The notes below the pieces were generated by a model. It saw only the letters and a list, made by a program, of their open reading frames with translations, was not told the origin of the DNA and did no database searches. 64,000 nt of DNA, taken from contig CM102287.1 in the NCBI GenBank assembly GCA_046563655.1, positions 1,674,001-1,738,000 on the forward strand, read 5' to 3'. This document shows, piece after piece, positions 1 to 59,817 of the stretch. Numbering within the stretch: the stretch's first letter is position 1; every line of letters starts with the position of its first letter. Source of the stretch: Yuukianura sp. NJ FZ-2021. Its lineage: Eukaryota. The translations under genes and the position numbers were made by a program.

Positions 1-1
1 G

Positions 2-1684
2 TTGAGAGCCGAACGAGTTATAAGTGTGGACATGGAGTTTAGTCATGACAAAGGCTATCGTGATCGTTATGTTTGTTCCTTGCAGATATCGACCAAGGAA
101 TCGGATTTCATCATTGATCCATTCGTAGTGCCAATCCAGATGCAAATGTTGCGGGAAATCTTCTCCAATGGTAACTACATCAAGATTCTGCATGGATGTG
201 TTAATGATATCCTCATGTTCCAGCTTCATTACCATATCTTCTTCGTGGGTGTAATTGACACTCAAATCGTGGATTCTGTCTTTGGAGGGACTCAAGGACG
301 TGGATTGGACAAAGTGATTAGTGACTACTTGCCTGGTGTGAAAGTGAGCAAGGATTGTCAACTTGCTGATTTTAGGATTCGTCCTATTCAGAACATGCAT
401 CCAGACATGATTCAGTACGCCAGGAGTGACACACATTTGTTGTTACGTGTGTTTGAAGTCATGAAAAAACGTTATGACTTCAAAAGTGAAAGTGTTAAGT
501 GGAATGAAGTTGTCAAGTTGTGTAATAATTTGTGCTTAAAAGTCTACAAGTTTAAGCCTAATCCAAGTGCCCGTGAGATTCTGGCTAAAGTGGACATGCC
601 CACTTTAAGTGTAAGTGTGATGGAGCAAGTTGTCGGCTGGAGAGACATGGTTGCCAGGGAGATGGACGTTCAACCAAAGGAAGTCATTGCTGATGTTACT
701 TGTGCTCAATTGGTCAAGGAAGGGCCTAAAAATAGGTTGGACATTGAAAAAGTGATTGGCAAAAATGTTTTGTCATCGGGTCATTTGGATATGCTAGTTG
801 AAGTTTTTGTGTCTACTAAAAGTGTGGGTGGAGTCACAGAAGTTGCTGCTACAACTTCTACAGTGCAAAAAGTGACTTTGGACTTATCGGTGTTTGATTG
901 GGATACACCAATCACTAAAGAAGATGTAAAAAGAATGGAACAGGAAGTTGTTCAATCAACTTCCAAAAGTGTAAATTTTCCTGCTACAGTGCCTAAAGTA
1001 CATTTGGATTTGTCTGTTTTTGACTGGGATACGCCAGTCACCAGAGAGGATATTGCCAGGATGGAGGCGGAAGTTGGTAAAACAACTTCCCAAAATGTAA
1101 ATATTCGTGCTCCAGTGCCTGTTGACATTGATGGTTTATCGGATGTCTCCGATCTCTCAGAAGTTTCTGATGAACCATTGGAGGAGGAAGAAGAGGAGTC
1201 TCAAGTGGAAGTTGAGTGCAACGTCCAGAAATTTAGTGATAGTGATAATGGTGACATGCTGATTGTCACCGTCTCGGAAGATGATCTGCGTGAGGTGGTA
1301 GGAGTACCACCAGAAGATGTTCCGAATGTGGTTTACGAACCACAAGTACCAGAGGAAGATCCCCAGGAAGTGATGGCTGCGATGGAGGAGGAGCCCCAGG
1401 AAGTAGTAGCTGCAGCCGAACGAAGAGATCGGCGAGATCGCCGAAACTGTCCCCATTGTGGAAGCGAGCGGCATACTGACGTGATGTTTTGCCGATTTCG
1501 TGATCTGCCAGAACCAGAAGCGAGAAGACGTCACCGCCGCCGGCGTCTCAATATGAATCGACGCCGAAATCTTCGTATTCGTGCTGAGGAGGAGCGTTTG
1601 CGACGAGAAGCGGAACGTGCAGCCCGAGAAGCAGAGGATGATGGAGATCGTGTCCCGAGGAATGCCCCGGAACCCGATCTTTAG
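2..1684 (+). CDS. Rrp6/EXOSC10-like DEDDy 3'-5' exonuclease + HRDC-like domain + acidic linker + CCHC-like knuckle + Arg-rich tail; 5'-partial; accessory ORF of a probable LTR retrotransposon
   Basis: ExoI SVDMEF, CSLQIST..DFIID, ExoII KILHGCVNDI, QLADFRIRP and ExoIII YARSDTHLLL follow the Rrp6 motif order. An HRDC-like segment (WRDMVAREMDVQPKEVI) follows, then CPHCGSERHTDVMFC (CX2CX4HX5C). The ORF has no introns and is open from the window edge. Confidence 0.88.
   Translation: MRAERVISVDMEFSHDKGYRDRYVCSLQISTKESDFIIDPFVVPIQMQMLREIFSNGNYIKILHGCVNDILMFQLHYHIFFVGVIDTQIVDSVFGGTQGRGLDKVISDYLPGVKVSKDCQLADFRIRPIQNMHPDMIQYARSDTHLLLRVFEVMKKRYDFKSESVKWNEVVKLCNNLCLKVYKFKPNPSAREILAKVDMPTLSVSVMEQVVGWRDMVAREMDVQPKEVIADVTCAQLVKEGPKNRLDIEKVIGKNVLSSGHLDMLVEVFVSTKSVGGVTEVAATTSTVQKVTLDLSVFDWDTPITKEDVKRMEQEVVQSTSKSVNFPATVPKVHLDLSVFDWDTPVTREDIARMEAEVGKTTSQNVNIRAPVPVDIDGLSDVSDLSEVSDEPLEEEEEESQVEVECNVQKFSDSDNGDMLIVTVSEDDLREVVGVPPEDVPNVVYEPQVPEEDPQEVMAAMEEEPQEVVAAAERRDRRDRRNCPHCGSERHTDVMFCRFRDLPEPEARRRHRRRRLNMNRRRNLRIRAEEERLRREAERAAREAEDDGDRVPRNAPEPDL
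861..1112 (+). repeat. Two diverged 126-bp (42-aa) in-frame tandem repeats inside the exonuclease ORF
   Basis: cagtgc recurs at 861, 987 and 1113. KVTLDLSVFDWDTPITKEDVKRMEQEV aligns with KVHLDLSVFDWDTPVTREDIARMEAEV. Confidence 0.9.
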
Positions 1685-1700
1685 AAGGAGGAAGGTGAAG

Positions 1701-2103
1701 TGCCCCGGTTTTCCCCCTTTAGGTTAGGGTCGTTTGCCCCTTGAGGTTAGGGTGTGGCCCTAGGTTAGTGTAGTTAGGTTATGGTTTAGTCTTAGCGTTT
1801 AGTTGAGATTGGTTTAGCGCTTAGCGCGAGTTTTGAGTAGAGTTAGCGTGGTAGAGGAGAGTCAGGAGAGTATTGAGACTAGTTGTGCCAGTCAGTCGGT
1901 TTTTGGTGTTCGTCTCAGCATGAGCTGAAGACTTTGTATCTTTTGTACAAATAAATATATTTTATATTTATTTGTCTCTGAGTCTTCGTGTTGTTTCTTT
2001 GGTGTCCCTTTTGGTCCTCAGTTTTTGGTGCATGAGTCCGGCAGTGCTCGGATCGTAGTCTGGAGGCCATCTTTGGCAATTTTACGTAGCACGAGGTGCT
2101 ACA
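1701..2103 (+). mobile_element. Probable 3' LTR of the exonuclease-carrying element (left boundary uncertain)
   Basis: Purine-rich tract agaaggaggaaggtgaag (1683-1700) is followed by TG. AATAAA lies at 1950-1955. The segment ends ...tgctaCA at 2103, where the satellite resumes mid-monomer (ttatgtggtg). The partner LTR is outside the window. Confidence 0.6.
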
Positions 2104-2332
2104 TTATGTGGTGATCGGACTCAAATTTTCGGATTGCAAAATTGTTGTTGTTGTTGCTTAGTTTATTTTCCTATTCCGGATAGGTTTTTAAAAATAAACA
2201 GTTGTATACTGTCATTAGGTTAAGTGTTTAAAATTGTTTTCAATCAGTCAATTCGATTAATTAGTAATAGTTGAGCATTATTTTGATAATGAAAATGAAA
2301 ATCATTTGATAATAGTAAACATCAAAGGTAAA

Positions 2333-3295
2333 CAAGGTAGGGCAATGCTCAAGGGTTGAGCATAGGTCTTCTGGAGGGAGTGGACAATTGATACGACTTA
2401 AATCACTCTAACGCTGGTGAACAAAATAATGTAAAACCGTTTTCATGTAGTTGATGCACCAAAGCGTCGCTCAAAATACTCAGTGCGGATGTGTGGTCCT
2501 ATTTTGTGCATACGTTGCACCAAAATTGGGTTGGCAATTCTACCATTTAATTGCACCAAAGTCATGTTTCAGTTTTGAGCCCCAAAATATTTGCACTGAA
2601 TTGATGTTGTTAATTTGTTGAGCAAGATGCACATAATGTATTTTCTGTATTGCCATGGCAATGTACTATTAGCGAAAACAGCGTAAACCAAACGGCATCA
2701 AAATAATATCGAAATTGAGCATTGTGCATGATGCACAAAATTGAACGCCGAGGAGTATGGGTCGAACATCCCTTCTTTGAAGTCAAAATCGGTTGAAATA
2801 CATGCACCATGTGTCAAATTAGGTGCATAAGTTATAGCGTCGAATATCACTTGTTTAAAATCAAAACTTAAAATTTTCTGGCAAAGGGAAACTTGAACCC
2901 TGCCAAGCACTGCTTACGTATTATGAATTTAAGCCGGAATTTCTACCTTCTAACAACGCTAAATTTAACAAAGCGTTTAAACTAAATGTCAGGAAATGAC
3001 CAGATCAAACTCCGTTGTTTAGAAATACTTTGAGTGCAATCGAAACCAAAACAGGTTTGCGGAGCCAAGATACTGCGGGTACGTAAAGTAGCCGCCCACT
3101 TCTACGTTGTTACGATAACACTTTGAGTGGAATGTAGACATAATGAAAACACTTGAGCGATACAGGACACCCCGTCAATAATGGAGGTAATGTTTCAGTG
3201 CAAAGGGTACTAAAAAACGTTACGGACGGACGGACGGACAAAGTCGTATCAATAGTCTTCTTCAGCACGTCGTAGACGTGCGTCTCCAGAAGACT
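2333..3295 (-). mobile_element. Non-autonomous Helentron-type element (HINE, DINE-1-like) inserted in the 3' UTR of LINE copy 1
   Basis: It interrupts aggtaaaaaggt, which is intact in the other copies. Subterminal inverted repeats are gtcttctggag (2366-2376) and ctccagaagac (3284-3294). A 5' inverted repeat lies at 3253-3296, a (GTCC)n microsatellite at 3222-3240, and a 3' hairpin atgctcaa-ggg-ttgagcat at 2345-2363. The target is a T-run and there is no coding capacity. Confidence 0.8.
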
Positions 3296-4136
3296 AAAAG
3301 GTAAAAAGAAAGTAAAAATGAGAGAGAAAAAAAAAGAGAAACATTAAATGAACTTCCTACTAGGTTGCTTGTTGTTTTCTTTCGTGAGGACGTCATTTTC
3401 TTGTATCTTCAGAAACTGTTTGTGTATGGCCGCTTTGAACGCTCCTTTAGTTTTGAGTTCCGTCGTTGCTTTTGGCAAGTAACCCCATAGTAGTTTCGTT
3501 TTTGATTTAAAAGAATTACGAGTGATTGTTGTGTTCCTGGAGTGAATCATTTTTCGTGTTCTTAAGCCGGCTTCTTCTTCGGTGTCGTGCAAGTATTTCT
3601 CAAAATATGGAATGCTACGGTTGTTGAGGATATCAAATGCATGAAGTAGTACCATCATGTTGTGTTGATGAGTAGGGAAGAGCCACCCAAGTTCCTTTGT
3701 GATCCGTAATTTCACTTTGTCGTATTTCTTGCTCTTGAGAATAAAGTGACTCCGCCGTGCGTACTATTTTTTCCGCTGATTTCAATTGTACTTTAGTTGC
3801 GCTACCCCATATTTCAGCCATGTACCAAAGCTTAGACAAAACGTAAGATGTCATCAGAGTTTTTCGGTTGTCTTGTGTAAGAAGTCTTTGCATAGGGTAG
3901 AGTGAGAATATGATTTTTAAACATTTCTTTGTTGTGTTCATGATATGTGAATCCCACTTCAAGCAACCGTCTATGTTAAGGCCGAGGCTGGTGAGTGTTT
4001 CTGTTGTTCCGACTGTTACATTCTGAAATTGAAACTGCACTCCTTGAATTATATTCCTTATCTTCGGTTTTGCCACGATGAGGATTCCAGTTTTCTCAGG
4101 GTGAATTGTGAATCCGTTTTTTTGTGAATCCGTTGT

Positions 4137-14320: not shown

Positions 14321-17300
14321 GTTGTTGTTGTTGCTTAGTTTATTTTCCTATTCCGGATAGGTTTTTAAAAATAAACAGTTGTATACTGTCATTAGGTTAA
14401 GTGTTTAAAATTGTTTTCAATCAGTCAATTCGATTAATTAGTAATAGTTGAGCATTATTTTGATAATGAAAATGAAAATCATTTGATAATAGTAAACGTC
14501 AAAGGTAAAAAGGTAAAAAGAAAGTAAAAATGAGAGAGAGAAAAAAAAGAGAAACATTAAATGAACTTCCTACTAGGTTGCTTGTTGTTTTCTTTCGTGA
14601 GGACGTCATTTTCTTGTATCTTCAGAAACTACGGTTGTTGAGGATATCAAATGCATGAAGTAGTACCATCATGTTGTGTTGATGAGTGGGGAAGAGCCAA
14701 CCAAGTTCCTTTGTGATCCGTAATTTCACTTTGTCGTATTTCTTGCTCTTGAGAATAAAGTGACCCGCCGTGCGTACTATTTTTCCGCTGATTTCAATTG
14801 TACTTTAGTTGCGCTACCCCATATTTCACCCATGTACCAAAGTTTAGACAAAACGTAAGATGTCATCAGAGTTTTTCGGTTGTCTTGTGTAAGAAGTCTT
14901 TGCATAGGGTAGAGTGAGAATATGATTTTTAAACATTTCTTTGTTGTGTTCATGATATGTGAATCCCACTTCAAGCAACCGTCTATGTTAAGGCCGAGGC
15001 TGGTGAGTGTTTCTGTTGTTCCGACTGTTACATTCTGAAATTGAAACTGCACTCCTTGAATTATATTCCTTATCTTCGGTTTTGCCACGATGAGGATTCC
15101 AGTTTTCTCAGGGTGAATTGTGAATCCGTTTTTTTGTGAATCCGTTGTGAATTGTGATCCAACATAGCCCAGAATGACTTCTTAGTCACTTTTTGGTGAA
15201 AAAATTGAATTTTTCACCAAAAATTGAGTTCTAGGCACTTTATGTGGTGATCGCACTTAAATTTTCGGATTGCAAAATTGTGATCCAACATAGCCCAGAA
15301 TGACTCCTTTGTCACTTTTTGCGAAAAAATTGAATTTTTTCACCAAAAATTGAGTTCTAGGCACTTTATGTGGTGCTCGGACCCAATTTTTCGGATTGCA
15401 AAATTGTGATCCAACATAGCCCAGAATGACTCCTTTGTCACTTTTTTTTGCGAAAAAATTCAATTTTTTCACCAAAAATTTAGTTCTAGGTACTTTATGT
15501 GGTGATCGGACTCAAATTTTCGGATTGCAAAATTGTTGTTGTTGTTGCTTAGTTTATTTTCCTATTCCGGATAGGTTTTTAAAAATAAACAGTTGTATAC
15601 TGTCATTAGGTTAAGTGTTTAAAATTGTTTTCAATCAGTCAATTCGATTAATTAGTAATAGTTGAGCATTATTTTGATAATGAAAATGAAAATCATTTGA
15701 TAATAGTAAACGTCAAAGGTAAAAAGGTAAAAAGAAAGTAAAAATGAGAGAGAAAAAAAAAGAGAAACATTAAATGAACTTCCTACTAGGTTGCTTGTTG
15801 TTTTCTTTCGTGAGGACGTCATTTTCTTGTATCTTCAGAAACTACGGTTGTTGAGGATATCAAATGCATGAAGTAGTACCATCATGTTGTGTTGATGAGT
15901 AGGGAAGAGCCACCCAAGTTCCTTTGTGATCCGTAATTTCACTTTGTCGTATTTCTTGCTCTTGAGAATAAAGTGACCCGCCGTGCGTACTATTTTTTCC
16001 GCTGATTTCAATTGTACTTTAGTTGCGCTACCCCATATTTCAGCCATGTACCAAAGCTTAGACAAAACGTAAGATGTCATCAGAGTTTTTCGGTTGTCTT
16101 GTGTAAGAAGTCTTTGCATAGGGTAGAGTGAGAATATGATTTTTAAACATTTCTTTGTTGTGTTCATGATATGTGAATCCCACTTCAAGCAACCGTCTAT
16201 GTTAAGGCCGAGGCTGGTGAGTGTTTCTGTTGTTCCGACTGTTACATTCTGAAATTGAAACTGCACTCCTTGAATTATATTCCTTATCTTCGGTTTTGCC
16301 ACGATGAGGATTCCAGTTTTCTCAGGGTGAATTGTGAATCCGTTTTTTTGTGAATCCGTTGTGAATTGTGATCCAACATAGCCCAGAATGACTTCTTAGT
16401 CACTTTTTGGTGAAAAAATTGAATTTTTCACCAAAAATTGAGTTCTAGGCACTTTATGTGGTGATCGCACTTAAATTTTCGGATTGCAAAATTGTGATCC
16501 AACATAGCCCAGAATGACTCCTTTGTCACTTTTTTTGCGAAAAAATTGAATTTTTTCACCAAAAATTGAGTTCTAGGCACTTTATGTGGTGCTCGGACCC
16601 AATTTTCGGATTGCAAAATTGTGATCCAACATAGCCCAGAATGACTCCTTTGTCACTTTTTTTTGCGAAAAAATTCAATTTTTTCACCAAAAATTTAGTT
16701 CTAGGTACTTTATGTGGTGATCGGACTCAAATTTTCGGATTGCAAAATTGTTGTTGTTGTTGCTTAGTTTATTTTCCTATTCCGGATAGGTTTTTAAAAA
16801 TAAACAGTTGTATACTGTCATTAGGTTAAGTGTTTAAAATTGTTTTCAATCAGTCAATTCGATTAATTAGTAATAGTTGAGCATTATTTTGATAATGAAA
16901 ATGAAAATCATTTGATAATAGTAAACGTCAAAGGTAAAAAGGTAAAAAGAAAGTAAAAATGAGAGAGAAAAAAAGAGAAACATTAAATGAACTTCCTACT
17001 AGGTTGCTTGTTGTTTTCTTTCGTGAGGACGTCATTTTCTTGTATCTTCAGAAACTACGGTTGTTGAGGATATCAAATGCATGAAGTAGTACCATCATGT
17101 TGTGTTGATGAGTAGGGAAGAGCCACCCAAGTTCCTTTGTGATCCGTAATTTCACTTTGTCGTATTTCTTGCTCTTGAGAATAAAGTGACCCGCCGTGCG
17201 TACTATTTTTTCCGCTGATTTCAATTGTACTTTAGTTGCGCTACCCCATATTTCAGCCATGTACCAAAGCTTAGACAAAACGTAAGATGTCATCAGAGTT

Positions 17301-20300
17301 TTTCGGTTGTCTTGTGTAAGAAGTCTTTGCATAGGGTAGAGTGAGAATATGATTTTTAAACATTTCTTTGTTGTGTTCATGATATGTGAATCCCACTTCA
17401 AGCAACCGTCTATGTTAAGGCCGAGGCTGGTGAGTGTTTCTGTTGTTCCGACTGTTACATTCTGAAATTGAAACTGCACTCCTTGAATTATATTCCTTAT
17501 CTTCGGTTTTGCCACGATGAGGATTCCAGTTTTCTCAGGGTGAATTGTGAATCCGTTTTTTTGTGAATCCGTTGTGAATTGTGATCCAACATAGCCCAGA
17601 ATGACTTCTTTGTCACTTTTTTTGAAAAAATTGAATTTTTTGCGAAAAAATTGAATTTTTTCACCAAAAATTGAGCTCTAGGCACTTTATGTGGTGATCG
17701 GACTTAAATTTTCGGATTGTAATATTGTGATCCAACATAGCCCAGAATGACTCCTTTGTCACTTTTTTTTGCGAAAAAATTGAGTTCTAGGCACTTTATG
17801 TGGTTATCGGACTCAAATTTTCGGATTGCAAAATTGTGATCCAACATAGCCCAGAATGACTCCTTTGTCACTTTTTTTTGCGAAAAAATTGAATTTTTTC
17901 ACCAAAAATTTAGTTCTAGGCACTTTATGTGGTGATCGGACTCAAATTTTCGGATTGCAAAATTGTGATCCAACATAGCCCAGAATGACTCCTTTGTCAC
18001 TTTTTTTGCGAAAAAATTGAGTTCTAGGCACTTTATGTGGTGATCGGACTCAAATTTTCGGATTGCAAAATTGTGATCCAACATAGCCCAGAATGACTCC
18101 TTTGTCACTTTTTTTTGCGAAAAAATTGAATTTTTTCACCAAAAATTGAGTTCTAGGCACTTTATGTGGTGATCGGACTTAAATTTTCGGATTGTAATAG
18201 TGTGATCCAACATAGCCCAGAATGACTTATTTGTCCCTTTTTGGTGAAAAAATTGAATTTTTTCACCAAAAATTGAGTTCTAGGCACTTTATATGGTTAT
18301 CGGACTTAAATTTTCGGATTGAAAAATTGTGATCCAACGTAGCCCAGAATGACTTTGTCACTTTTTGGTGAAGAAATTGAATTTTTTCACCAAAAATTGA
18401 GTTCTAGGTACTTTATGTGGTGATCGGACCCAATTTTCGGATTGCAAAATTGTGATCCAACATAGCCCAGAATGACTCCTTTGTCACTTTTTTTTGCGAA
18501 AAAATTGAATTTTTTCACCAAAAATTTAGTTCTAGGCACTTTATGTGGTGATCGGACTCAAATTTTCGGATTGCAAAATTGTTGTTGTTGTTGCTTAGTT
18601 TATTTTCCTATTCCGGATAGGTTTTTAAAAATAAACAGTTGTATACTGTCATTAGGTTAAGTGTTTAAAATTGTTTTCAATCAGTCAATTCGATTAATTA
18701 GTAATAGTTGAGCATTATTTTGATAATGAAAATGAAAATCATTTGATAATAGTAAACGTCAAAGGTAAAAAGGTAAAAAGAAAGTAAAAATGAGAGAGAA
18801 AAAAAAAGAGAAACATTAAATGAACTTCCTACTAGGTTGCTTGTTGTTTTCTTTCGTGAGGACGTCATTTTCTTGTATCTTCAGAAACTACGGTTGTTGA
18901 GGATATCAAATGCATGAAGTAGTACCATCATGTTGTGTTGATGAGTGGGGAAGAGCCAACCAAGTTCCTTTGTGATCCGTAATTTCACTTTGTCGTATTT
19001 CTTGCTCTTGAGAATAAAGTGACTCCGCCGTGCGTACTATTTTTCCGCTGATTTCAATTGTACTTTAGTTGCGCTACCCCATATTTCACCCATGTACCAA
19101 AGTTTAGACAAAACGTAAGATGTCATCAGAGTTTTTCGGTTGTCTTGTGTAAGAAGTCTTTGCATAGGGTAGAGTGAGAATATGATTTTTAAACATTTCT
19201 TTGTTGTGTTCATGATATGTGAATCCCACTTCAAGCAACCGTCTATGTTAAGGCCGAGGCTGGTGAGTGTTTCTGTTGTTCCGACTGTTACATTCTGAAA
19301 TTGAAACTGCACTCCTTGAATTATATTCCTTATCTTCGGTTTTGCCACGATGAGGATTCCAGTTTTCTCAGGGTGAATTGTGAATCCGTTTTTTTGTGAA
19401 TCCGTTGTGAATTGTGATCCAACATAGCCCAGAATGACTTCTTAGTCACTTTTTGGTGAAAAAATTGAATTTTTCACCAAAAATTGAGTTCTAGGCACTT
19501 TATGTGGTGATCGCACTTAAATTTTCGGATTGCAAAATTGTGATCCAACATAGCCCAGAATGACTCCTTTGTCACTTTTTTTGCGAAAAAATTGAATTTT
19601 TTCACCAAAAATTGAGTTCTAGGCACTTTATGTGGTGCTCGGACCCAATTTTCGGATTGCAAAATTGTGATCCAACATAGCCCAGAATGACTCCTTTGTC
19701 ACTTTTTTTTTGCGAAAAAATTCAATTTTTTCACCAAAAATTTAGTTCTAGGTACTTTATGTGGTGATCGGACTCAAATTTTCGGATTGCAAAATTGTTG
19801 TTGTTGTTGCTTAGTTTATTTTCCTATTCCGGATAGGTTTTTAAAAATAAACAGTTGTATACTGTCATTAGGTTAAGTGTTTAAAATTGTTTTCAATCAG
19901 TCAATTCGATTAATTAGTAATAGTTGAGCATTATTTTGATAATGAAAATGAAAATCATTTGATAATAGTAAACGTCAAAGGTAAAAAGGTAAAAAGAAAG
20001 TAAAAATGAGAGAGAAAAAAAGAGAAACATTAAATGAACTTCCTACTAGGTTGCTTGTTGTTTTCTTTCGTGAGGACGTCATTTTCTTGTATCTTCAGAA
20101 ACTACGGTTGTTGAGGATATCAAATGCATGAAGTAGTACCATCATGTTGTGTTGATGAGTAGGGAAGAGCCACCCAAGTTCCTTTGTGATCCGTAATTTC
20201 ACTTTGTCGTATTTCTTGCTCTTGAGAATAAAGTGACTCGCCGTGCGTACTATTTTTTCCGCTGATTTCAATTGTACTTTAGTTGCGCTACCCCATATTT

Positions 20301-23300
20301 CAGCCATGTACCAAAGCTTAGACAAAACGTAAGATGTCATCAGAGTTTTTCGGTTGTCTTGTGTAAGAAGTCTTTGCATAGGGTAGAGTGAGAATATGAT
20401 TTTTAAACATTTCTTTGTTGTGTTCATGATATGTGAATCCCACTTCAAGCAACCGTCTATGTTAAGGCCGAGGCTGGTGAGTGTTTCTGTTGTTCCGACT
20501 GTTACATTCTGAAATTGAAACTGCACTCCTTGAATTATATTCCTTATCTTCGGTTTTGCCACGATGAGGATTCCAGTTTTCTCAGGGTGAATTGTGAATC
20601 CGTTTTTTTGTGAATCCGTTGTGAATTGTGATCCAACATAGCCCAGAATGACTTCTTAGTCACTTTTTGGTGAAAAAATTGAATTTTTTCACCAAAAATT
20701 GAGTTCTAGGCACTTTATGTGGTGATCGCACTTAAATTTTCGGATTGCAAAATTGTGATCCAACATAGCCCAGAATGACTCCTTTGTCACTTTTTTTGCG
20801 AAAAAATTGAATTTTTTCACCAAAAATTGAGTTCTAGGCACTTTATGTGGTGCTCGGACCCAATTTTCGGATTGCAAAATTGTGATCCAACATAGCCCAG
20901 AATGACTCCTTTGTCACTTTTTTTTGCGAAAAAATTCAATTTTTTCACCAAAAATTTAGTTCTAGGTACTTTATGTGGTGATCGGACTCAAATTTTCGGA
21001 TTGCAAAATTGTTGTTGTTGTTGCTTAGTTTATTTTCCTATTCCGGATAGGTTTTTAAAAATAAACAGTTGTATACTGTCATTAGGTTAAGTGTTTAAAA
21101 TTGTTTTCAATCAGTCAATTCGATTAATTAGTAATAGTTGAGCATTATTTTGATAATGAAAATGAAAATCATTTGATAATAGTAAACGTCAAAGGTAAAA
21201 AGGTAAAAAGAAAGTAAAAATGAGAGAGAAAAAAGAGAAACATTAAATGAACTTCCTACTAGGTTGCTTGTTGTTTTCTTTCGTGAGGACGTCATTTTCT
21301 TGTATCTTCAGAAACTACGGTTGTTGAGGATATCAAATGCATGAAGTAGTACCATCATGTTGTGTTGATGAGTAGGGAAGAGCCACCCAAGTTCCTTTGT
21401 GATCCGTAATTTCACTTTGTCGTATTTCTTGCTCTTGAGAATAAAGTGACCCGCCGTGCGTACTATTTTTTCCGCTGATTTCAATTGTACTTTAGTTGCG
21501 CTACCCCATATTTCAGCCATGTACCAAAGCTTAGACAAAACGTAAGATGTCATCAGAGTTTTTCGGTTGTCTTGTGTAAGAAGTCTTTGCATAGGGTAGA
21601 GTGAGAATATGATTTTTAAACATTTCTTTGTTGTGTTCATGATATGTGAATCCCACTTCAAGCAACCGTCTATGTTAAGGCCGAGGCTGGTGAGTGTTTC
21701 TGTTGTTCCGACTGTTACATTCTGAAATTGAAACTGCACTCCTTGAATTATATTCCTTATCTTCGGTTTTGCCACGATGAGGATTCCAGTTTTCTCAGGG
21801 TGAATTGTGAATCCGTTTTTTTGTGAATCCGTTGTGAATTGTGATCCAACATAGCCCAGAATGACTTCTTTGTCACTTTTTTTTGCGAAAAAATTGAATT
21901 TTTTGCGAAAAAATTGAATTTTTTCACCAAAAATTGAGCTCTAGGCACTTTATGTGGTGATCGGACTTAAATTTTCGGATTGTAATATTGTGATCCAACA
22001 TAGCCCAGAATGACTCCTTTGTCACTTTTTTTTGCGAAAAAATTGAGTTCTAGGCACTTTATGTGGTTATCGGACTCAAATTTTCGGATTGCAAAATTGT
22101 GATCCAACATAGCCCAGAATGACTCCTTTGTCACTTTTTTTTGCGAAAAAATTGAATTTTTTCACCAAAAATTTAGTTCTAGGCACTTTATGTGGTGATC
22201 GGACTCAAATTTTCGGATTGCAAAATTGTGATCCAACATAGCCCAGAATGACTCCTTTGTCACTTTTTTTTGCGAAAAAATTGAGTTCTAGGCACTTTAT
22301 GTGGTGATCGGACTCAAATTTTCGGATTGCAAAATTGTGATCCAACATAGCCCAGAATGACTCCTTTGTCACTTTTTTTGCGAAAAAATTGAATTTTTTC
22401 ACCAAAAATTGAGTTCTAGGCACTTTATGTGGTGATCGGACTTAAATTTTCGGATTGTAATAGTGTGATCCAACATAGCCCAGAATGACTTATTTGTCCC
22501 TTTTTGGTGAAAAAATTGAATTTTTTCACCAAAAATTGAGTTCTAGGCACTTTATATGGTTATCGGACTTAAATTTTCGGATTGAAAAATTGTGATCCAA
22601 CGTAGCCCAGAATGACTTTGTCACTTTTTGGTGAAGAAATTGAATTTTTTCACCAAAAATTGAGTTCTAGGTACTTTATGTGGTGATCGGACCCAATTTT
22701 CGGATTGCAAAATTGTGATCCAACATAGCCCAGAATGACTCCTTTGTCACTTTTTTTTGCGAAAAAATTGAATTTTTTCACCAAAAATTTAGTTCTAGGC
22801 ACTTTATGTGGTGATCGGACTCAAATTTTCGGATTGCAAAATTGTTGTTGTTGTTGCTTAGTTTATTTTCCTATTCCGGATAGGTTTTTAAAAATAAACA
22901 GTTGTATACTGTCATTAGGTTAAGTGTTTAAAATTGTTTTCAATCAGTCAATTCGATTAATTAGTAATAGTTGAGCATTATTTTGATAATGAAAATGAAA
23001 ATCATTTGATAATAGTAAACGTCAAAGGTAAAAAGGTAAAAAGAAAGTAAAAATGAGAGAGAAAAAAAAAGAGAAACATTAAATGAACTTCCTACTAGGT
23101 TGCTTGTTGTTTTCTTTCGTGAGGACGTCATTTTCTTGTATCTTCAGAAACTACGGTTGTTGAGGATATCAAATGCATGAAGTAGTACCATCATGTTGTG
23201 TTGATGAGTAGGGAAGAGCCACCCAAGTTCCTTTGTGATCCGTAATTTCACTTTGTCGTATTTCTTGCTCTTGAGAATAAAGTGACTCCGCCGTGCGTAC

Positions 23301-48897: not shown

Positions 48898-48951
48898 GGG
48901 AACGGTTCGAATTTTTTTTTCTAAACTTTTTTTTGAAATTGGGCCCTAACT

Positions 48952-50451: not shown

Positions 50452-50478
50452 CTAAGCTGCCGTTGCAGGAACGACAGC
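50442..50478 (+). promoter_or_regulatory. -1 programmed ribosomal frameshift signal (gag-pol)
   Basis: In-frame G GGA AAC (50442-50448) lies just before the gag stop. A 7-nt spacer is followed by the stem gctgccgtt/aacgacagc (50456-50478). pol is in the -1 frame. Confidence 0.8.
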
Positions 50479-50729: not shown

Positions 50730-53300
50730 ATGTATGTAAGACCCCCCTGTTCCCCCATGTCTAATTTTGATGATTTAGATTCTCAGGTTTTAGGTGGATT
50801 TGGTACTTTTACTGCCCGAGACAGCCGTCCTTCGCCCCCTTCTGTCCACCATACTCTTAAAGTCCCGATTTTCTTTTCTGGTTTTGAAGAAAGCGCTTTA
50901 GCGGACACTGGAGCGTCTATTTGTGCAATGAATCCCCAATTTTTGCGTCGTATTTCTTCTTCTGTTGAGGCTGTTCATGAAATTACCCCCATGAAAACAG
51001 CATTTTCAGTTACTGGCCCGGAGTCTTTCATCAATCAGGTTGCTCTTGTGAAATTTGAATTTTTTGGTTGTAATTACTCGTATTTTTTCTACGTCATTCC
51101 CAACCTTTCTAACCCCGTAGTCATAGGCATGGACTTCATCCTCCATTACGATTTCCTTCTGGATCCGAAGAACGCTTTGATGTGGAGACGCCAGGACACA
51201 AACCCGTTTTGCCCTTCCATTCCCCCAGGTCCTAAAGCGCAGTCTCAGCCTCCAGAAAAACAATCACTTCAGTCCACTACCCTATCTCAGACCACTGCAC
51301 CCTCAGACGATTCAACAAAGGCTGAAACGCTCACTACGAGCTCTACTTGCTCTACTTGCTCAGAATCTGCAAAAACTACAGCGTCAGAGCCCGCAGACAC
51401 AGAATCTACGTCATCCTCCGATTCTTCTGACATGCGCAGAACAGTTTCTCTGGATCGGACATACGACATTCTCCCGGGGTGCATGAAGAGAGTCAACATC
51501 AAGTCCAGCGTCACTTTCTCCGGAGACATAGCCATCACCCCGAACCAGGAATTCCAAGAAAAACAACATGTAGCTGTCGGTAACTGTATCGTTTCACTTG
51601 ACAATGGCAAAGGCATCACATTTCTTTGGAACTTGACTAATTCCCCTATTCGTGTCTTCAGATCCACCATTATTGGAGATTGGTGCCCGTTTCAAGGACT
51701 TTTAGGTTCCCAGAAGACAGTAGATCCAGCCACAGTCAAGCCAGTCATTTGCGGCCTCTCTGTTGACCTCAGTCCAGATGAGGAACTCGCCATTCTGCAG
51801 AAACGATTTGACCAACTCGAACTACAACTTGGGGAAAGGCTAACTCCGGAAGAAAAGTCGTCGCTTCGTCAGCTTCTGTTCCAGAACAGGGACATGTTCT
51901 CCTCAAACCCCACAGAAATTGGCCGTACCCATTTAGTCCAACATCACATCGACACAGGAAACGCCAGACCAGTCAGATCGCATCCTTATCGCGTCGGTCC
52001 CATTGAACGTCAAGAAATTGCCAAGGAAGTTTACCGTCTCATGGATCTCGGGTTTGTCCGTGAGTCCAACAGTCCCTGGAGTTCCCCGGTTGTCCTTGTC
52101 AAGAAGTCAGACGATAGTTGGCGTTTCTGCGTCGACTACCGCCGTGTCAATGCCCTAACCAAGAAAGACTCCTACCCGCTTCCTAGGATCGACGACACTT
52201 TGGATCGACTTGGTGGAGCCAAGTACTTTTCTTCAGTCGACTGCGACCAGGCCTACTACCAAGTCGAAATTGCGGAAGAAGACAAGGAAAAGACAGCATT
52301 TGTCACCCCTGACGGCCAATACCAGTTCGACGTGATGCCATTCGGACTTTCAAATGCTCCTGGGACTTGGCAGAGACTAATTGATCGTGTCCTCGGAAAT
52401 CTCAAATGGACAAGTGCACTTGTGTACTTGGACGACATAACCATTTTTTCCCGCACTTTCTCTGACCATTTGACCCACCTCAACCAGGTTTTTGCAGCTC
52501 TACGATCCGCTAACTTGACTTTGAAACCGAAGAAGTGCGTTTTCGGTCATCATGAGTTGAAGTTCCTGGGTCACATCGTCTCTTCAGAAGGAATTCGTCC
52601 AAATCCAGAGAAAGTCGCAGCAGTTATGGAATTCCCAAGACCGACAAGCACCAAAGGAGTTCGTTCCTTCGTCAGTCTCTGCTCCTACTACAGAAAGTTC
52701 ATGGAAGGATTTGCTTCTGTCGCCAGACCACTGCACGCACTTTGTGGAGCAAAACCAGGAGACGAATTCGTTTGGAGTCAAGAAGCTGAGACTGCCTTTA
52801 CGTCACTCAAAGCCCTTTTGTCCTCCCCTCCTGTTCTAGCTTTCCCCTCAGAAGATGCGCCAACTTCCATTCACACAGACGCGAGCGCCATTGGTTTCGG
52901 TGCCACCCTCGTCCAGACAATTGAGGGAGTTGAGAAGGTAATTGCCTACGCGTCTAGGGTCACTTCGAAGACAGAATCTAACTACGGAGCAGCAGAACTT
53001 GAGATGAAAGCAGCAATCTGGGCTGTTTCCCATTTTCGTCCTTACCTCTACGGGAGACACTTTAAACTCATAACGGATCACAGAGCCTTAACGTCCCTTC
53101 TCCGTTTTCGTGACCCCCATGGGAGACTCGCTAGGTGGGCTATTGCACTTCAGCCTTACGATTTTCAAGTCATACATCGCTCCGGCCGTGTACACCAAGA
53201 CGCTGATCCACTTTCCCGCAATCCCGTTTGGCCCGCTCCCTCAGATTGCGATCATTTAGCAATTGAAGGTCACCTCTTAGCCCTTTCTCTCTTTCCCTTA
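50730..53300 (+). CDS. pol: Pol of the outer element: aspartic protease, reverse transcriptase, RNase H (N-terminal part of the chimeric 50730-55022 ORF)
   Basis: ALADTGAS; SPWSSPVVLVKK, WRFCVDYRRVN, MPFGLSNAP, VYLDD, KFLGH; HTDAS, ELEM, TDH, DADPLSR. The right boundary is approximate. Confidence 0.93.
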
Positions 53301-55022
53301 GGTTCTAGGAAAGTCACCTTTCCTACTTATGATACTGAAAATGAAGAACCGAACGTACCACCGCATAGACCGCCTATATCACATGTTAGCACTAGACAAG
53401 AAGGTCCAAATAACACAGACAGAATTAGAGAACAAGGTCAACGTACTGAAAATTCTAATGTAACGCAGAACGTTATGACTCAGCCTAATCCAGGTGCAAG
53501 TCGTGCTACAGTAGCAGCCAGAGCCAGTATCTCACCAGAACAAATAGGTCCGCAGAATATTCCGAAACGAGTAATTAGACAATTAGGTCTAGAACAGGAG
53601 GGTTTAGACACATGGTCAGATTTTAAAAAGTGGTTAGACAAAATTCCTAAAAAGAAAAGTGTCAGAGGCGACGTGAGTTCAGTCGACGTCTCAGACGAAG
53701 AAAAAGATTCAGATGATTATGATGACGAGAAAAGTAGTGATGATGAAAGTGAAGTAGACAGTCGAAAGAAAAACCGAATGCCAAAGGTCAACTACGTTAT
53801 TACGGGTATTAACCCGAATATACCGATACCAGTCTACGACTACAGAAAGCGAACAGCTGTTTCTTATTTACATGATGTAGAGTCGTACTTTCAAAGTCAA
53901 AATTATACGAAAGACAAGTACTTGTATTTGATCAGAACGATTATGACAAAGGAGGTCAAATCTTGGTTCGATAACGTCAGAGACGACATAAAAACATGGT
54001 CAGAGTTTAAAAAAGCGTTTATAGCCAAATACGATTCAGTCGCAGAGAAAGAGTTTAGAGCAAGGTTGTTATTAACCAGAAAACAGAAAGTTACAGAGTC
54101 TGTAGAGTCATTTGTATGGGAAATGGTTACTCTAAGTCATCAGGTGAATCCGAAAGAAGAGACACATGTCATTGTACGCAGATGCAGAGACGCTCTGTAT
54201 CCTACAATTCGGACATTGATTGGTTATAGTGCTAGTTGGACGCCGACGGATTTAATTAATGAAGCGAAAAGAGTCATTTACGATTTGAGATCAGAGGCTA
54301 AACGAACGAAAACGTATATCCCAATTCCTCAGGTTAATACTATTCCAGTTGAGCAGAGTGAACTTAATTCAGCTCACAAAACAGATTCTAACGCTACAGA
54401 GTCACAAAATCATAGATTTCCAGAGAACATACAATTCAAGGGAAACCGTAATCGAGGAAATTACCATGGAAGTCAAGAAAGAGTTCAAAATTTTCGAAAT
54501 TCTCAAAATTTTCAAAACAATGAAGGTCAACCAAGTGAAACGCGGAGTTATATGACATACCAAGGTCAAAGTTCTAGAGGCAGAGGTAATTCCTATGTGA
54601 TCAGACAAGGGAATAATACCCCAGAGTACTTGGCAGAGGATCACAATTTTTATTTTCAAAACAATAGACGTAAGGATTACTTCGAACGAGACTTTCAAAG
54701 TCAGAACAGACATTTTAATCAACAGAAGAAGGAGTTAACCTGTTTTGTATGCCACCAGATTGGTCATTTTGTTCGAGATTGTCCAAATGTAAACGCAGTC
54801 GCCATGACGTATAATCCTAGAGAAGAGAATTGTGAAGGTCAGAGACAAGAATTTTCGAATATCACATTTCAACAAAATAATCCAAGAGACCAAAGTCAGG
54901 AAGAATTTTCTCACAACACAATGCCAATTTTTTCGAGTAGAAGTTATAAGAGGAACGACGTGTTCGACGATGTTCCTCCCCAAAACCAAAACAGCCAGGA
55001 AAATCAATATTTAAATTACTAA
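53300..55022 (+). CDS. gag: Gag of the nested element, fused in frame to the outer pol
   Basis: Capsid-like YLHDVESYF, EVKSWFD, TWSEFKKAFIAKY and KQKVTESVESF; knuckle CFVCHQIGHFVRDC. It ends at an in-frame slippery heptamer T TTA AAT (55010-55016). Confidence 0.85.
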
Positions 55023-56200
55023 AGAGCAGAGTCCCACCAAGTCTCAATTTACCCCATAATTATTGCAGAGATTTAGTGTTTAAAATTTAGTATTCAAGAA
55101 TTTAAATACTTAAAAAAGACAATGTGCGCAGATGTCACATTAGACATTACATAGTTTAGATTAGCCAAAAAGATTTCTATCGCAACAGACAGTTCAGATT
55201 ATGGGATTTCCGCAGCGTTATTCCTGAAATTAAAAGGAAAAAGCGAAGTTGTACATTCAACAGTTTACAGAGCAACAGTAACAGCTCTTAAGACAGATCA
55301 AAATTTAGTAGATGATGAAATAGAAATACGGGATGCTCCCAAGGTTAGGTCGACGTGCTCGACGATGACCTGACACGTTGTCAAATTTCAAATGTATAGT
55401 TAGTTAAAGTTTAATCTAGAAGAGTAAAAGAGAGAATCAGAAATTATTGAAATCAGAAAGAAAATATTAAAATCACAATGATTGAAAGAAATAAATTGAA
55501 AGAAACGAGCAATTGTCCTCGCACAAAAAGCAGAATTATGCTGTTAAAAATGACGTAGTAGTCAGAATTGTTTATTTTACAAAAGCAGAGTTGCTAAGAA
55601 AAGAGATCTCCAAAAATATTTCCAGTGATACGCCAGAACTCCAGAAAGTTAACGTATCTGTTAAATACAGGCATTAAATACCTGGAAAATACAGGCCTTA
55701 CCCGGGAGCAACAGTCTAGCCCCGCGGAATATGAGCACATTGCGCTGCCATTAAATGAATCAGAAAAAAGTACGTACAGAAAATGAGAAAGTCGACTTAG
55801 TTAGGAAAAGAAATAGGTTATAAGATAGAATTAAAATTTTAGTGCTAGGTATTACAATGATGTGGAGAGAATTGATTTTGAGTTCAAATTAAAGTGTCAT
55901 GAACTAATATACCGCAAATTATGCCAAAAAGTTTCTATGGTTCGTTAGCCAACAAGGTTTAATAACTTTCAAATAGACAGAGATGTTTCCAATAAAAGAA
56001 ACGACAACAAATAGATTAATTGTTTGACGAACTAAGTATTTGGACAAAACGGAAGTCTTAAACGAATTATTGCGAATCAAGGGGCTTAATCTCTTTGAAC
56101 TTTAGTGTCAAACTGTTGTTCAACATCTCAGAGTCAAAGTTACAAAAATACTTACAGAAGTTTATTGTATGGGTTCGAAACCATATGAGCAAGTTTCAAA
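55023..56200 (+). pseudogene. Heavily decayed and internally deleted pol relic of the nested element
   Basis: 55161-55259 translates LAKKISIATDSSDYGISAALF... (RNase H TDAS motif). 55968-56030 gives FK*TEMFPIKETTTNRLI and 56069-56086 gives IANQGA (integrase-core-like). Many stops. Confidence 0.65.
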
Positions 56201-56579
56201 AAGTATAATGACCCAGATTAGTTTAACAGTGTTCAACAAAAGCAGTCAGTATTGAGTCGACGCAGTGCTGTATTGTAATAAATTACGAACACGGGGCAGA
56301 AAGTTACTCAAAACCATTACCAATAGCGAAATAACCGAAAAAACAAGCGTTCTCAGATCAAAACCACAGTTAATTATACAGCGTTACCAGGTTTAAGAAT
56401 ATAGATTAAGTTAGTACCCCGGGTTAGATTAAGTTAGGCTAAAGTAGCATAAGTCAGAGTTAGTGAAATAATGTAAAAATGTATAATAATCCAGTTTACT
56501 TTAATTAATTTATGAAATAGATCAAATTTCAAAAGCAAACAGTTTAGAGATAAAAAAAATTAAAGCCTATCATAGAGAA

Positions 56580-58527
56580 ATGCACAAAATAAGTGGAGGT
56601 CAAAAGAGTGCCGACCAGTCTAAGTATCTTATGTTTTTAAAGCGACGAAGAGTAGTCAATTTCAAAGGAGACATTGTGTTCAGACAGAGTCACCCTTATC
56701 AAGAAAAGATCGTTAAATGGAATCCGAAAAGAAGTATTCTTAAAGCATTGGTATTTCCACAACATCGAATTCAACATTGGATCAACACAGAGTATCATGC
56801 CGACCAGATGATGGCACATTTGTTGACTAAAAAGATTATTTTTGTGGATACGGAACATTGCCAATCAAATTCTTTCAAAACGTACATCGCAATTATACAA
56901 ATTTCGACCGAAGAACATGATTTCGTGATCGATGTGCCACCATTGATTCCATGGTTACTTAAACACCTACCGAAAGTGTTATCAAAGTCCAAATTCCTTA
57001 AAGTATTGTCAGGTGGCGACAATGATCTTTTGTTGCTCCAACAAGACTTTAACATCTTCGTATACCCGGCCATTGACTTACAAGAATTTTACTATAAAGT
57101 GTACAAAGACAGTCAAGAAGAGTTTAAGCCAATCGGTTTGGCTACAATGCGTCACCACTTACTCAAAAGTACAGTAAACAAAGAAGCACAAGCAGCAGAT
57201 TGGTCTACGAGAGACAGAATCGGTAGATTACCGAACGATTTATTTGAATATGCACGATTGGACACATATTACTTAATTTTACTTTGGAATGTGTTAGTGG
57301 AGAAGATTGAGGTCGATGTGCTCAACAATGACCTCAGGAAGGAGTTTTCGGATGAAAACACAAATCAAAAGTTTCCAATTTCGGCAAAGAGATGCTTAGC
57401 ATTGCTAAAACCCACTAAAAGTTCATTAGAAACTGAGTTAGCTAAGCACACGTCAACGTCACATCAAATCTACCAAGCTATGTTTCGAAAAATATTTATG
57501 TGGACAGAGTATCGAACAAAGGCACTCGATAAACCAATAGTTCAAATCTTAAAAAGCGAAATTATAGCAGAAATTGCTAAAAAATCACCATTACAAAATT
57601 ACAAATGAAGACTTACGAAAAATTACAAAATATACTCACAAATACGAAAATGATATTCTGAGAGTTATTTCAGACACAAACAGCCTCATCCTAAGCGTCT
57701 ACAACGTCCCACCTTCACAATTCGGAATCGTCGCCAGTCAAAAACCATTCTACGAGAAAAATTTCAGCGAAGAGGAGATGGAAATTCGACAAATCAGCGA
57801 GACAAGTTCAGATTCAGACTCAGAAGATAGCGACATGGAGATTGAATGTGAAGTTTACGAAGAATCCGACCCAGAAATTGTCTATGAGCTCATCAATCTC
57901 ATTCCAGACGAACAATTCCAAATCATTCCAGTCACCAAACAAGAAAATCTTCAACGCATCAATTCAGAATCCCAATCGGAACAAGTCAGTACTTCACAAC
58001 CACACCCAGAAGAAGAAGAACCATCCCCAGAACAACCCGCACCAGACCCAGAATTCCTCAACATTCACGCCGACTACGACGACATCGAGATTTTTCCGCA
58101 ACCGACAACTACAAAAAAATGCTGGTGGTGCTTTTCTACTGGACACAGTCACAAAAACTGCGAAAATCCGAAAGCCCGCTACAAAATGATCAAAGCAAAC
58201 CCCGACCAGAAAAAGAAGTACAACAAAAAACATAAGGAGTGGCTGCGGCGGAAACAGAAACGAGGAGGACCCATGCAGAAACCAGGACGCCCCCTTATTC
58301 CAGTCGAAGGACCCCCAGGAGGAGGTCAAGGGGCTCTTTCGAAGGAGAGTGTGAGGGAGCATCACCCCCACCCACCCAACTCAGCAGATCCAGCGCCAGA
58401 GGAGGAAGACGGAGCGGAGCAGCTTCACTCCTGGAGCGGACGGCGAGGAGACAGGAGGACAAGACACGACACAGGACACAGGATCATCATTTGTATCATA
58501 TTTTATATATATTATTATTATTATTGA
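56580..58527 (+). CDS. Second Rrp6/EXOSC10-like DEDDy exonuclease + HRDC-like + acidic linker + CCHC knuckle + basic tail; split by a 1-nt frameshift near 57580-57600
   Basis: FVDTEH, IIQISTEEHDFVID, SGGDNDLLLLQQDF, QAADWSTR, YARLDTYYL and HRDC-like FRKIFMWTEYRTKALDKP in ORF 56580-57608. It continues in 57574-58527 with an acidic region, CWWCFSTGHSHKNC and a Lys/Arg-rich stretch. Confidence 0.85.
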
Positions 58528-58623
58528 TTGACTGGTTTATCTTTCAATAAACCAGTATCCAGCATCTTATTCTGTGTGCCTCATTTCAGGTTCTTATTGG
58601 TTGAGAGGATCGTTTGTTTCACA
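58350..58623 (+). mobile_element. 3' LTR of the nested element (274 bp)
   Basis: PPT gaaggagag (58341-58349), 5-bp inverted termini TGTGA...TCACA, a TATA-like run near 58504-58512 and AATAAA at 58546-58551. Confidence 0.75.
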
Positions 58624-59742
58624 CACGTCCTAGTGGTGACTGACCTCCATACTCGTTACATGGAAGCGTGGCCCGTAACCAATTCGACCTCAGAAAATGC
58701 CATCAAGATACTTGAGCAACACGTGTTCTCCCGCCATGGAATTCCGTCTCAAATCCTCATGGATCAAGGATCTCATTTCATGTCAGCCGAATTCCAGGAT
58801 CATCTTAAAGACTACGGAATCAAAGTACGGAGATCAGCAGCCTACAATCCGCAGGCCAATGGAGTCGTAGAGAGACATAACGGGACCATCAAAGCCACTC
58901 TGGCTAAACGTGTCGCTGACAACCACAAAGATTGGGATTTGCATCTCCATAAAGTCGTTTTTTCATTTATTTGCTCTACACACAAGGTAACGAAATTCTC
59001 ACCTTATTACTTAGCCTTTGGTAGAGAGCCTGTTGTCAAAACGGACAAGCTCTTCCCGATTGTCGAAAACCCCATTTTAGAGTCACCGGAAACAGTTCAG
59101 CTTCGTTCGGAAGTCGCAAATGTCATCGCATCTCAAAGGACACGAAAAGATCAAGTCCATCGACAGGCAGAAGTCAGCAAGAAACGTAAACCTCGCAAAT
59201 ACTTCGTTGGGGACATTGTTCTCTGGATGAACTTTCACCTCAGGAAACGACATGTCCGAAAATTCGAGCCGAAATGGAAAGGTCCCTACAAGATTTTGGA
59301 GGTTATCAGCCCAGTCAATGTCAAAATCCAGAGTATCGTGAAGAAACGCAAAGCCTTTGTCGTTTCTACGTCTCAGATCAAACTCTACAAGGAACCCCGA
59401 GAAGAAATCGAAATAGAAGAATTTGACCCGTCTGACCCCATTGACCTCGAATCCACTTCGTCTTTGCCCGTTTTGTCCCCTAATTCAGATACCCGTTTGC
59501 CCGTTCCCACCATTTCCGATTCCCCTCCTTCCCTTACCCCATTTGACTCTAGTTCATCGGTCGCTGAAATTGGAAAAGATAAGGAATTGGAGTCTCGAGA
59601 AATCCTGCATCTCGAGAACGATCCAGTTCTGCCCAGTAGTGGACCTACCACCGCTTCTGAGCCACCAGCCCCTCAAAACAGTGCAATTTTGCAATGGCTG
59701 GGCCGATTACGACCGAGAAAACCCCCCGCAAACAAAAAATAA
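58624..59742 (+). pseudogene. Integrase of the outer element, N-terminally truncated
   Basis: HVLVVTDLHTRYMEA, D(35)E pair MDQG...NGVVER, SPYYLAFGRE and GPY/F module KWKGPYKI. The HHCC finger and first catalytic Asp are missing. The listed ORF start (58528) is LTR read-through. Confidence 0.9.
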
Positions 59743-59817
59743 TCATGCGCGCATTTAGTTAGTTTAGGTTAGTTTTTGATTCTCTTATTCATTTTATCTT
59801 TTTTCTGCTTTTTAGAT

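Follow-up and report, generated by a model that had tools for sequence, protein, structure and literature searches.

An Rrp6-type exonuclease reading frame at the 3′ end of a probable long terminal repeat retrotransposon inserted in satellite DNA of Yuukianura sp.

Does an open reading frame (ORF) for an Rrp6-like exonuclease that ends abruptly in satellite DNA belong to the host genome or to a mobile element, and what would a mobile element do with such an enzyme? The question is raised by positions 2 to 2103 of a 64,000-nucleotide stretch of contig CM102287.1 of Yuukianura sp. NJ FZ-2021 (assembly GCA_046563655.1, positions 1,674,001 to 1,738,000), hereafter the window. These positions very probably represent the 3′-terminal portion of a single member of a multi-copy long terminal repeat (LTR) retrotransposon family, which carries a third ORF (ORF3) derived from the catalytic core of Rrp6/EXOSC10 and has inserted into a satellite monomer; the element is probably of the Ty3/gypsy type. 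A second ORF of this kind lies near the other end of the window, and the two are referred to as copy 1 and copy 2. The features of copy 1 and its flank are as follows.

2..1684, plus strand: ORF3, Rrp6-core exonuclease protein; the 3′ 560 codons and stop, open from the first bases of the window
8..472, plus strand: DEDDy 3′-5′ exonuclease domain, residues 3-157 (Pfam PF01612, E = 2.6e-26, profile positions 19-171 of 173)
611..826, plus strand: diverged HRDC-like helical domain, residues 204-275 (weak Pfam HRDC match and model helices)
858..1120, plus strand: tandem duplication of a 126-bp unit, 2.1 copies, 77% matches, in frame within the ORF3 linker
1124..1411, plus strand: acidic linker, predicted to be disordered (translation; predicted local distance difference test score, pLDDT, <50 for residues 361-425 and 433-466)
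1448..1492, plus strand: Cys/His knuckle CX2CX4HX6C, residues 483-497 (motif scan and alignment)
1493..1681, plus strand: Arg-rich C-terminal tail with one long predicted helix, residues 505-550 (translation and model)
1683..1700, plus strand: polypurine tract, 18 nt with one T, overlapping the stop codon (read from the sequence)
1701..2103, plus strand: 3′ LTR-like terminus, TG...CA, about 400 bp (TG at 1701, CA at 2102-2103)
2104..2108, strand not assigned: satellite monomer resuming behind the element, its opening bases (TTAT or TTATG) being a candidate target-site duplication (3′ flank)

The frame of copy 1 is closed by the TAG at 1682-1684 and is too long an open run for chance at the local base composition. 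Full-length relatives start ∼100 residues before the exonuclease domain, which suggests that about 100 N-terminal codons of copy 1 ORF3 lie outside the window. Alignment with relatives and with fungal Rrp6 located all five DEDDy residues (D10, E12, D69, Y139, and D143), and the first-pass annotation was thus right to describe the ORF as fully open with an intact catalytic set. In an AlphaFold2 model, residues 1-275 were confident (pLDDT >90), including helices at 204-275, and the linker was disordered save for two short helices. Those helices fall in a 42-residue repeat that is encoded by the duplication at 858-1120, every unit of which pairs an FDWDTP (Trp-acidic) motif with a short predicted helix behind it. 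Motifs of this Trp-acidic type also occur in the linkers of related proteins, with three in P0012 and one each in P0015, P0035, P0065, and P0132. This recurrence in several relatives makes it possible that the motifs act as short linear binding motifs.

Both structure and sequence point to Rrp6/EXOSC10 as the source of this protein. Foldseek searches with the copy 1 model were led by Rrp6 catalytic cores (4nlb at 6.8e-17, followed by 2hbj and 3saf; ∼280 to 300 columns aligned), and the nearest solved structures by sequence were yeast Rrp6 (1.3e-24) and human EXOSC10 (2.5e-20). A ten-member family profile scored Rrp6 and EXOSC10 at 3e-63 and 5.8e-63, respectively, versus 6.2e-24 for RNase D and 7.5e-17 for a Mut-7/Nibbler homolog, and its positions 20-85 aligned with the EXOSC10 segment located just N-terminal to the exonuclease domain. 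The nearest ESM Atlas clusters, RNase D and 3′-5′ exonuclease families (scores of 0.83 to 0.85), were not informative beyond this. Sequence alignments of copy 1 with Rrp6 chains extend to residue 246, and those with Rrp6/EXOSC10 chains hold no confident columns past the HRDC region. Pfam scans detected PMC2NT in none of nine full-length element-type relatives, the N terminus of copy 1 itself being outside the window, and in seven of the nine cellular matches returned by a search at near lengths. The profile scores, the match ahead of the exonuclease domain, and the missing PMC2NT together indicate that the family represents the Rrp6 catalytic core minus its N-terminal cofactor-binding domain and equipped with a new C terminus.

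The sequence downstream of the ORF has the layout expected of an LTR retrotransposon end. The stop codon merges into the polypurine tract, directly behind which the TG...CA terminus begins. This terminus contains an AATAAA signal at 1950-1955, within a near-perfect 29-nt AT-rich palindrome (1947-1975), and its final bases, ...GCTACA, end at 2103 with neither poly(A) nor a telomeric repeat. The 128-bp satellite monomer resumes at 2104 (TTATGTGG...), and contigs from public sequencing runs represent empty sites, since they read unbroken satellite to 2104, with ...GGCACT just before that position. The purine tract, the AATAAA, and the CA end within a satellite monomer, all proposed in the first-pass annotation, were thus recovered. 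A second LTR copy matching 1701-2103 was not found within the 64-kb window, and the 5′ LTR is expected upstream of base 1.

Copy number was approached through Logan contigs from four runs (X1 to X4), which cover two organisms and two studies. The contigs on window positions 1-2140 numbered 298, 349, 166, and 69, and their likeness to the window ranged overall from 80 to 100%, spread over bands of 99% and above, 95 to 99%, 90 to 95%, and below 90%. Copy 1 therefore belongs to a multi-copy dispersed family with diverged copies. In runs X1 and X2, contig depth summed over the terminal 400 bp was ∼3 to 5 times that of the ORF part, which gives only a weak hint of an LTR, as contig depth does not measure copy number.

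An Rrp6 paralogue of the host, cellular or domesticated, that merely neighbors repeat DNA would also present an intact frame, intact catalytic residues, and the signal of purifying selection described below. Such a host gene is scarcely credible here, however, since each run yielded diverged contig pieces on this stretch, hundreds of them in most cases, and no intron interrupts the 1.68 kb of coding sequence. Moreover, a polypurine tract and an LTR-like end take over at the stop codon, the insertion interrupts a satellite monomer of which empty sites occur elsewhere, and the rest of the 64-kb window is satellite and transposon DNA.

Relatives of the ORF3 protein were collected with an exhaustive HMMER search of 1.84 billion representative proteins, which gave 3939 matches at an E of ≤1e-3. 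The best match to copy 1 was P0012 (E = 1.1e-53, 36% identity), which is encoded on L001, a 3573-bp metagenome contig, directly behind an integrase ORF in which Pfam recognizes three domains: the H2C2 zinc finger, the rve core, and an SH3 domain of the Tf2 type. The integrase ORF lies in the same frame as P0012 and ends 36 nt short of its start codon, and the P0012 stop codon is followed by a G-rich tract similar to that at 1683-1700 of copy 1. Between the two ORFs, L001 positions 1654-1695 hold one stop codon and 12 codons, and a pyrimidine-rich stretch ending in CAG lies upstream of the ORF3 start codon. From this layout, expression of the L001 ORF3 via stop-codon read-through or a spliced subgenomic RNA is conceivable. 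A metagenome scan with P0012 as the single query returned L001 as its one locus.

The top relatives share a layout that is absent from cellular Rrp6, namely, ∼100 residues that carry the conserved pattern RPQ..N ... HP, then the exonuclease domain, HRDC, an acidic linker that often bears Trp-acidic motifs, a knuckle, and a basic tail. A Cys/His knuckle occurs in 13 of the 280 collected proteins (copy 1 ORF3 and 12 relatives with CX2CX4HX4C). No fusion to pol was found in a word-indexed search of longer proteins, whose one match was a fungal exosome subunit, and the nine matches of the same kind of search at near lengths were all of cellular type (27 to 30% identity). When the family profile was used for word-indexed searching, the 120 matches listed were, P0012 apart, only Rrp6/EXOSC10-type proteins. 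Similarly, Pfam revealed no reverse transcriptase (RT) or integrase fusion in 13 further long or element-type matches, one of which is a fusion to a major facilitator superfamily transporter and probably a gene-model artefact. Viral contigs scanned with the family alignment gave 164 pattern matches and no relatives.

These contexts also bear on the class of the element. A retroelement of another class (for instance, one like the Penelope-like Athena/Terminon elements) or an assembly of unrelated pieces is an alternative. The upstream part of the copy 1 element lies outside the window, DEDDy ORFs are known from rotifer Athena elements as well, according to the accessible text of two reports (PMC5408684 and PMC6431247), and the second element of the window is itself a nested, deleted composite without an LTR pair. 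We consider this explanation very improbable. A polypurine tract placed immediately before an AATAAA-containing TG...CA terminus of ∼400 bp, with no poly(A) or telomeric repeat, argues for an LTR retrotransposon, as do the closest relative, which stands behind a Ty3-type integrase, and, weakly, the excess of terminal over ORF depth. The first-pass annotation placed the Rrp6-type nuclease in the 3′-terminal part of an LTR-type retroelement rather than in a host gene, and this is borne out by the terminus in satellite DNA, the multiple copies, the integrase preceding P0012, and the relatives devoid of PMC2NT.

To what extent the ORF has been maintained while the family spread was assessed on 40 of the 567 differences between the window and the contigs, i.e., the best-supported subset, from contigs of mixed copies. 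Of these, 37 lie in ORF3 and are distributed as 10, 6, and 21 over first, second, and third codon positions (third-position excess, P = 0.003). Nineteen of the 37 are synonymous, versus 21.7% expected for random single changes (binomial P = 7e-5). The 12 small insertions or deletions that were listed in the same comparison, which holds 57 more, were all located at 1760-2080, within the LTR-like terminus. This pattern fits purifying selection on ORF3 during family spread. Consistently, all five catalytic residues are kept in 11 of the 13 element-type rows of the family alignment.

Copy 2 is embedded in an A-rich remnant of a second retroelement.

56505..58527, plus strand: copy 2 of ORF3, frameshifted, in two frames (56505-57608 and 57568-58527)
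53300..58625, plus strand: A-rich degenerate retroelement remnant with copy 2 (gag-like part at ∼53800-55022, RNase H remnant at 55155-55373, and ORF3)

The contrast that the first-pass annotation drew between a G/T-rich copy 1 and an A-rich copy 2 is evident in base composition: GC content is 0.446 with a GC skew of +0.23 at 1-2000, and ∼0.36 with an AT skew of ∼+0.2 at 54001-58000. Its claim of the same module order in both copies stands in outline, since exonuclease, acidic stretch, knuckle, and basic tail follow one another in each, but a frameshift within 57568-57608 splits copy 2, in which Pfam did not find HRDC. The exonuclease domain of copy 2 is preceded by 66 to 90 residues and, further upstream, a stop codon, and the copy 2 knuckle is a canonical CX2CX4HX4C that matches the family profile (hhalign probability of 87% over 27 columns). 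The second frame continues through GC-rich, probably non-coding sequence to 58527. The remnant has a short 3′ end with AATAAA, ending in ...CACA. No protease, RT, integrase, or 5′ LTR was found within 53300-58625, where integrase was also sought by tblastn, and no LTR pair was found in 47200-60900 with a seed of 12 or by word-7 blastn. Possibly, the remnant is a derivative, deleted or non-autonomous, in which gag and ORF3 were kept.

Whether the two copies trace back to one acquisition is a question for both the tree and the architecture of the proteins. Across 263 aligned positions, copy 1 and copy 2 share 26% identity (E = 4e-21). A quick IQ-TREE analysis (60 rows, 517 columns) placed 17 element-type rows, among them both window copies, on one side of a branch with an SH-like approximate likelihood ratio test (SH-aLRT) support of 96, and 43 cellular Rrp6/EXOSC10 rows, from animals, fungi, and other sources, on the other. 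Copy 1 is sister to P0012 (support of 91), and forcing it into the animal EXOSC10 group cost 59.2 log-likelihood units and was rejected by the approximately unbiased (AU) test (p-AU = 0.006). Forcing copy 2 into the same group cost only 0.89 units and was not rejected (p-AU = 0.495), and the end branch of copy 2, at 3.62, exceeds all others in the tree. The two ORFs may accordingly be read as separate captures of host Rrp6/EXOSC10 by different elements instead of a single old acquisition, a reading that would suit the low log-likelihood cost, the long branch, and the low identity, as well as the at least two independent acquisitions of DEDDy ORFs, by Juno and by Vesta elements, that the accessible text of the rotifer report infers (PMC5408684). 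We regard it as rather improbable. Beyond the SH-aLRT branch that sets both copies apart from the cellular rows, the copies share features that the tree does not use: a start ∼100 residues ahead of the exonuclease domain, the lack of PMC2NT, the knuckle with basic tail, and the place by the element 3′ end. It is this architecture, i.e., start, knuckle, and placement, that argues for a common origin of copy 2 with copy 1. The earlier view of both ORFs as one clade apart from host Rrp6 consequently applies to copy 1, with copy 2 unplaced, and an old, selected acquisition fits the element-type group, the synonymous excess, and the rotifer precedent.

The behavior of copy 2 in the AU test is one of several points that weigh against the proposed reading. 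The groups compared in that test were named after inspection of the tree, which has long branches and was built without host EXOSC10 or outgroup nucleases. The 5′ part of the copy 1 element, with gag, pol, the 5′ LTR, and the other target-site duplication, would lie before the window, and the genomic contexts for the family are three, i.e., two in the window and L001. The LTR start is uncertain by a few bases because the LTR was defined from one copy. Furthermore, comparison of the three 3′ non-coding ends (copy 1, copy 2, and L001) gave no significant nucleotide similarity (best E = 0.59), and a single match at an E of 0.006 reflects AT-rich low-complexity sequence. Within the protein, the HRDC match of copy 1 (E = 1.2e-3, 19.2 bits, residues 206-253) falls under the 23.8-bit Pfam cut-off, which is exceeded in the relatives P0012, P0013, P0035, P0051, and P0132, and the knuckle spacing is the non-canonical CX2CX4HX6C as opposed to the CX2CX4HX4C of the 12 relatives. 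The selection test ignores transition bias and draws on a listed subset from mixed-copy contigs. Lastly, P0016 has lost one catalytic residue and P0032 has lost four of the five, which implies that nuclease activity is not always kept.

The remaining question is what an LTR retrotransposon would gain from this protein. Rrp6 is a distributive 3′-5′ exoribonuclease whose PMC2NT domain binds Rrp47 and whose C terminus binds the exosome core. Given these roles, we infer that the element protein acts outside the exosome by means of its own knuckle and tail. As judged from sequence, it would be an exosome-independent 3′-to-5′ exoribonuclease held on single-stranded nucleic acid by the knuckle and basic tail, where it would shorten RNA, or else single-stranded DNA, from the 3′ end and so assist the replication cycle; its nuclease activity, exosome independence, and substrate are all putative in this scheme. 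We tentatively favor a role in processing the ends of the RNA, primer, or cDNA of the element itself, a proposal about as likely to be wrong as right.

An alternative for the mechanism only, which leaves the anatomy identical, is that the nuclease serves as a counter-defence factor and not as a replication accessory, shortening or destroying host small RNAs of the PIWI-interacting or small interfering RNA type or 3′ tails that mark the RNA of the element for decay, which would weaken its silencing. The conserved catalytic residues and the purifying selection on ORF3 would suit this function, as would a family lacking the domain that ties Rrp6 to its cofactors. There are also DEDD nucleases that act on small RNAs, such as Nibbler and ERI-1, and the ExoN domains of nidoviruses and arenaviruses blunt host sensing. 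Against counter-defence, ORF3 presence, transcription, and copy number show no clear connection in rotifers, according to the accessible text of the rotifer report (PMC5408684). We therefore judge it unlikely, and the weight that remains beyond end processing and counter-silencing goes to other or lost functions. A bolder proposal, and a long shot at present, would make ORF3 a member of an old lineage of mobile, exosome-independent Rrp6 cores, fused to a nucleocapsid-type zinc knuckle, that moved among unrelated Ty3/gypsy-like elements, possibly beyond rotifers, and countered host RNA-based silencing through the trimming of small RNAs or of 3′ tails that mark decay, instead of processing the nucleic acids of the element.

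The A-rich remnant interrupts, at ∼53300-58625, a C-rich Ty3/gypsy-type element that spans 47321-60780.

48952-50451: gag of the C-rich element
50730 to ∼53300: protease (PR), RT, and RNase H of the C-rich element
58528-59742: integrase fragment of the C-rich element, without zinc finger and first part of the core
59776-60411: Pro-rich ORF of the C-rich element, with no Pfam match

No stop codon ends the pol frame of the C-rich element at the junction, and the frame reads on into the gag-like part of the foreign remnant as an ORF of 1430 residues. No dUTPase was detected between PR and RT of this GC-rich element, where the only hit was a weak spumavirus-protease match (E = 0.02). The 128-bp satellite monomer fills most of the window. 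Positions 2104-47320 and 60780-64000 form a higher-order repeat in which a 760-bp non-LTR retrotransposon fragment alternates with arrays of this satellite; the fragment corresponds to the C-terminal part of RT on the minus strand (28 occurrences, 97 to 100% identity). Seven copies of the fragment (14518-23601) share an internal gap, with fragment positions 113-310 missing. A 981-bp stretch at 2330-3310 is unique in the window and breaks a repeat unit that is seen intact at 46540-46560; it carries a (GGAC)n run, has no long ORF, and may be a small insertion. Rfam gave no matches over the whole window.

To our knowledge, retroelement enzymes other than protease, RT, RNase H, and integrase are rare. 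This rarity makes a selected, catalytically intact copy of an exosome nuclease a handle on the dealings of the element with RNA 3′ ends or host RNA surveillance. The window element opens no new category, since a DEDDy ORF3 in an LTR retrotransposon is a kind published in 2017 for bdelloid rotifers, and the element fits that kind. The literature yielded DEDDy or other exonuclease ORF3s in LTR elements only in that report (Rodriguez, Kenefick, and Arkhipova 2017, Viruses, PMC5408684) and in two reviews that cite it and repeat the point (PMC6431247 and PMC6338049); no HRDC-bearing retrotransposon ORF3 was found there. What the window element adds is a clearly Rrp6-derived version with a defined architecture of core, HRDC, acidic linker, zinc knuckle, and basic tail, together with relatives among publicly deposited proteins, of which one is encoded behind an integrase, and purifying selection among copies. 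Its importance would rise if the family extends beyond rotifers or if a counter-silencing activity proves true.

Among known systems, the Rrp6/EXOSC10 core itself (PDB 2hbj, 3saf, and 4nlb) resembles the element protein in sequence and fold over the pre-exonuclease segment, the DEDDy domain, and, in diverged form, HRDC. The differences lie in the C-terminal part, which consists of acidic linker, a knuckle of retroviral type, and basic tail, in the lack of PMC2NT among the full-length relatives scanned, and in the mobile, multi-copy state. Nucleases of the RNase D, Mut-7/Nibbler, and WRN types share the exonuclease fold and catalytic motif, but the RNase D and Mut-7 matches are much weaker than those of Rrp6. 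The closest parallel as an element is provided by the rotifer Juno and Vesta LTR retrotransposons, compared here by their description in the accessible text of the 2017 report (PMC5408684). They likewise carry a third ORF, strongly homologous to DEDDy exonucleases of the RNase D/Rrp6 type, between pol and a 3′ LTR of the TG...CA kind (159 to 551 bp), and the role proposed for it is 3′-end processing of retrotransposon RNAs. According to the same text, the rotifer ORFs occur in element lineages that are not related and are closer to each other than to cellular RNase D, Mut-7, WRN, and Rrp6, and dUTPase between PR and RT marks the rotifer lineages. The DEDD motif is changed to DEED in the rotifer proteins, whereas DEDD-Y is intact in the window ORF3, and the homology was found with HHpred, whereas the Rrp6 affinity of the window ORF3 is visible to plain Pfam and phmmer searches. 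A Cys-His-Cys motif is reported for Vesta2 and Vesta5, and the text accessible to us mentions neither HRDC nor CCHC, in contrast to the HRDC-knuckle-tail layout of the window ORF3. Penelope-like Athena/Terminon elements of rotifers have the same kind of accessory nuclease on a retroelement (PMC5408684 and PMC6431247), the DEDDy ORF having been acquired at least twice and being common to Athena (PMC5408684). Athena/Terminon elements belong to another element class, lack LTRs and integrase, and have telomeric-repeat ends, whereas the window element has a polypurine tract and a TG...CA terminus, and its relative lies behind an integrase.

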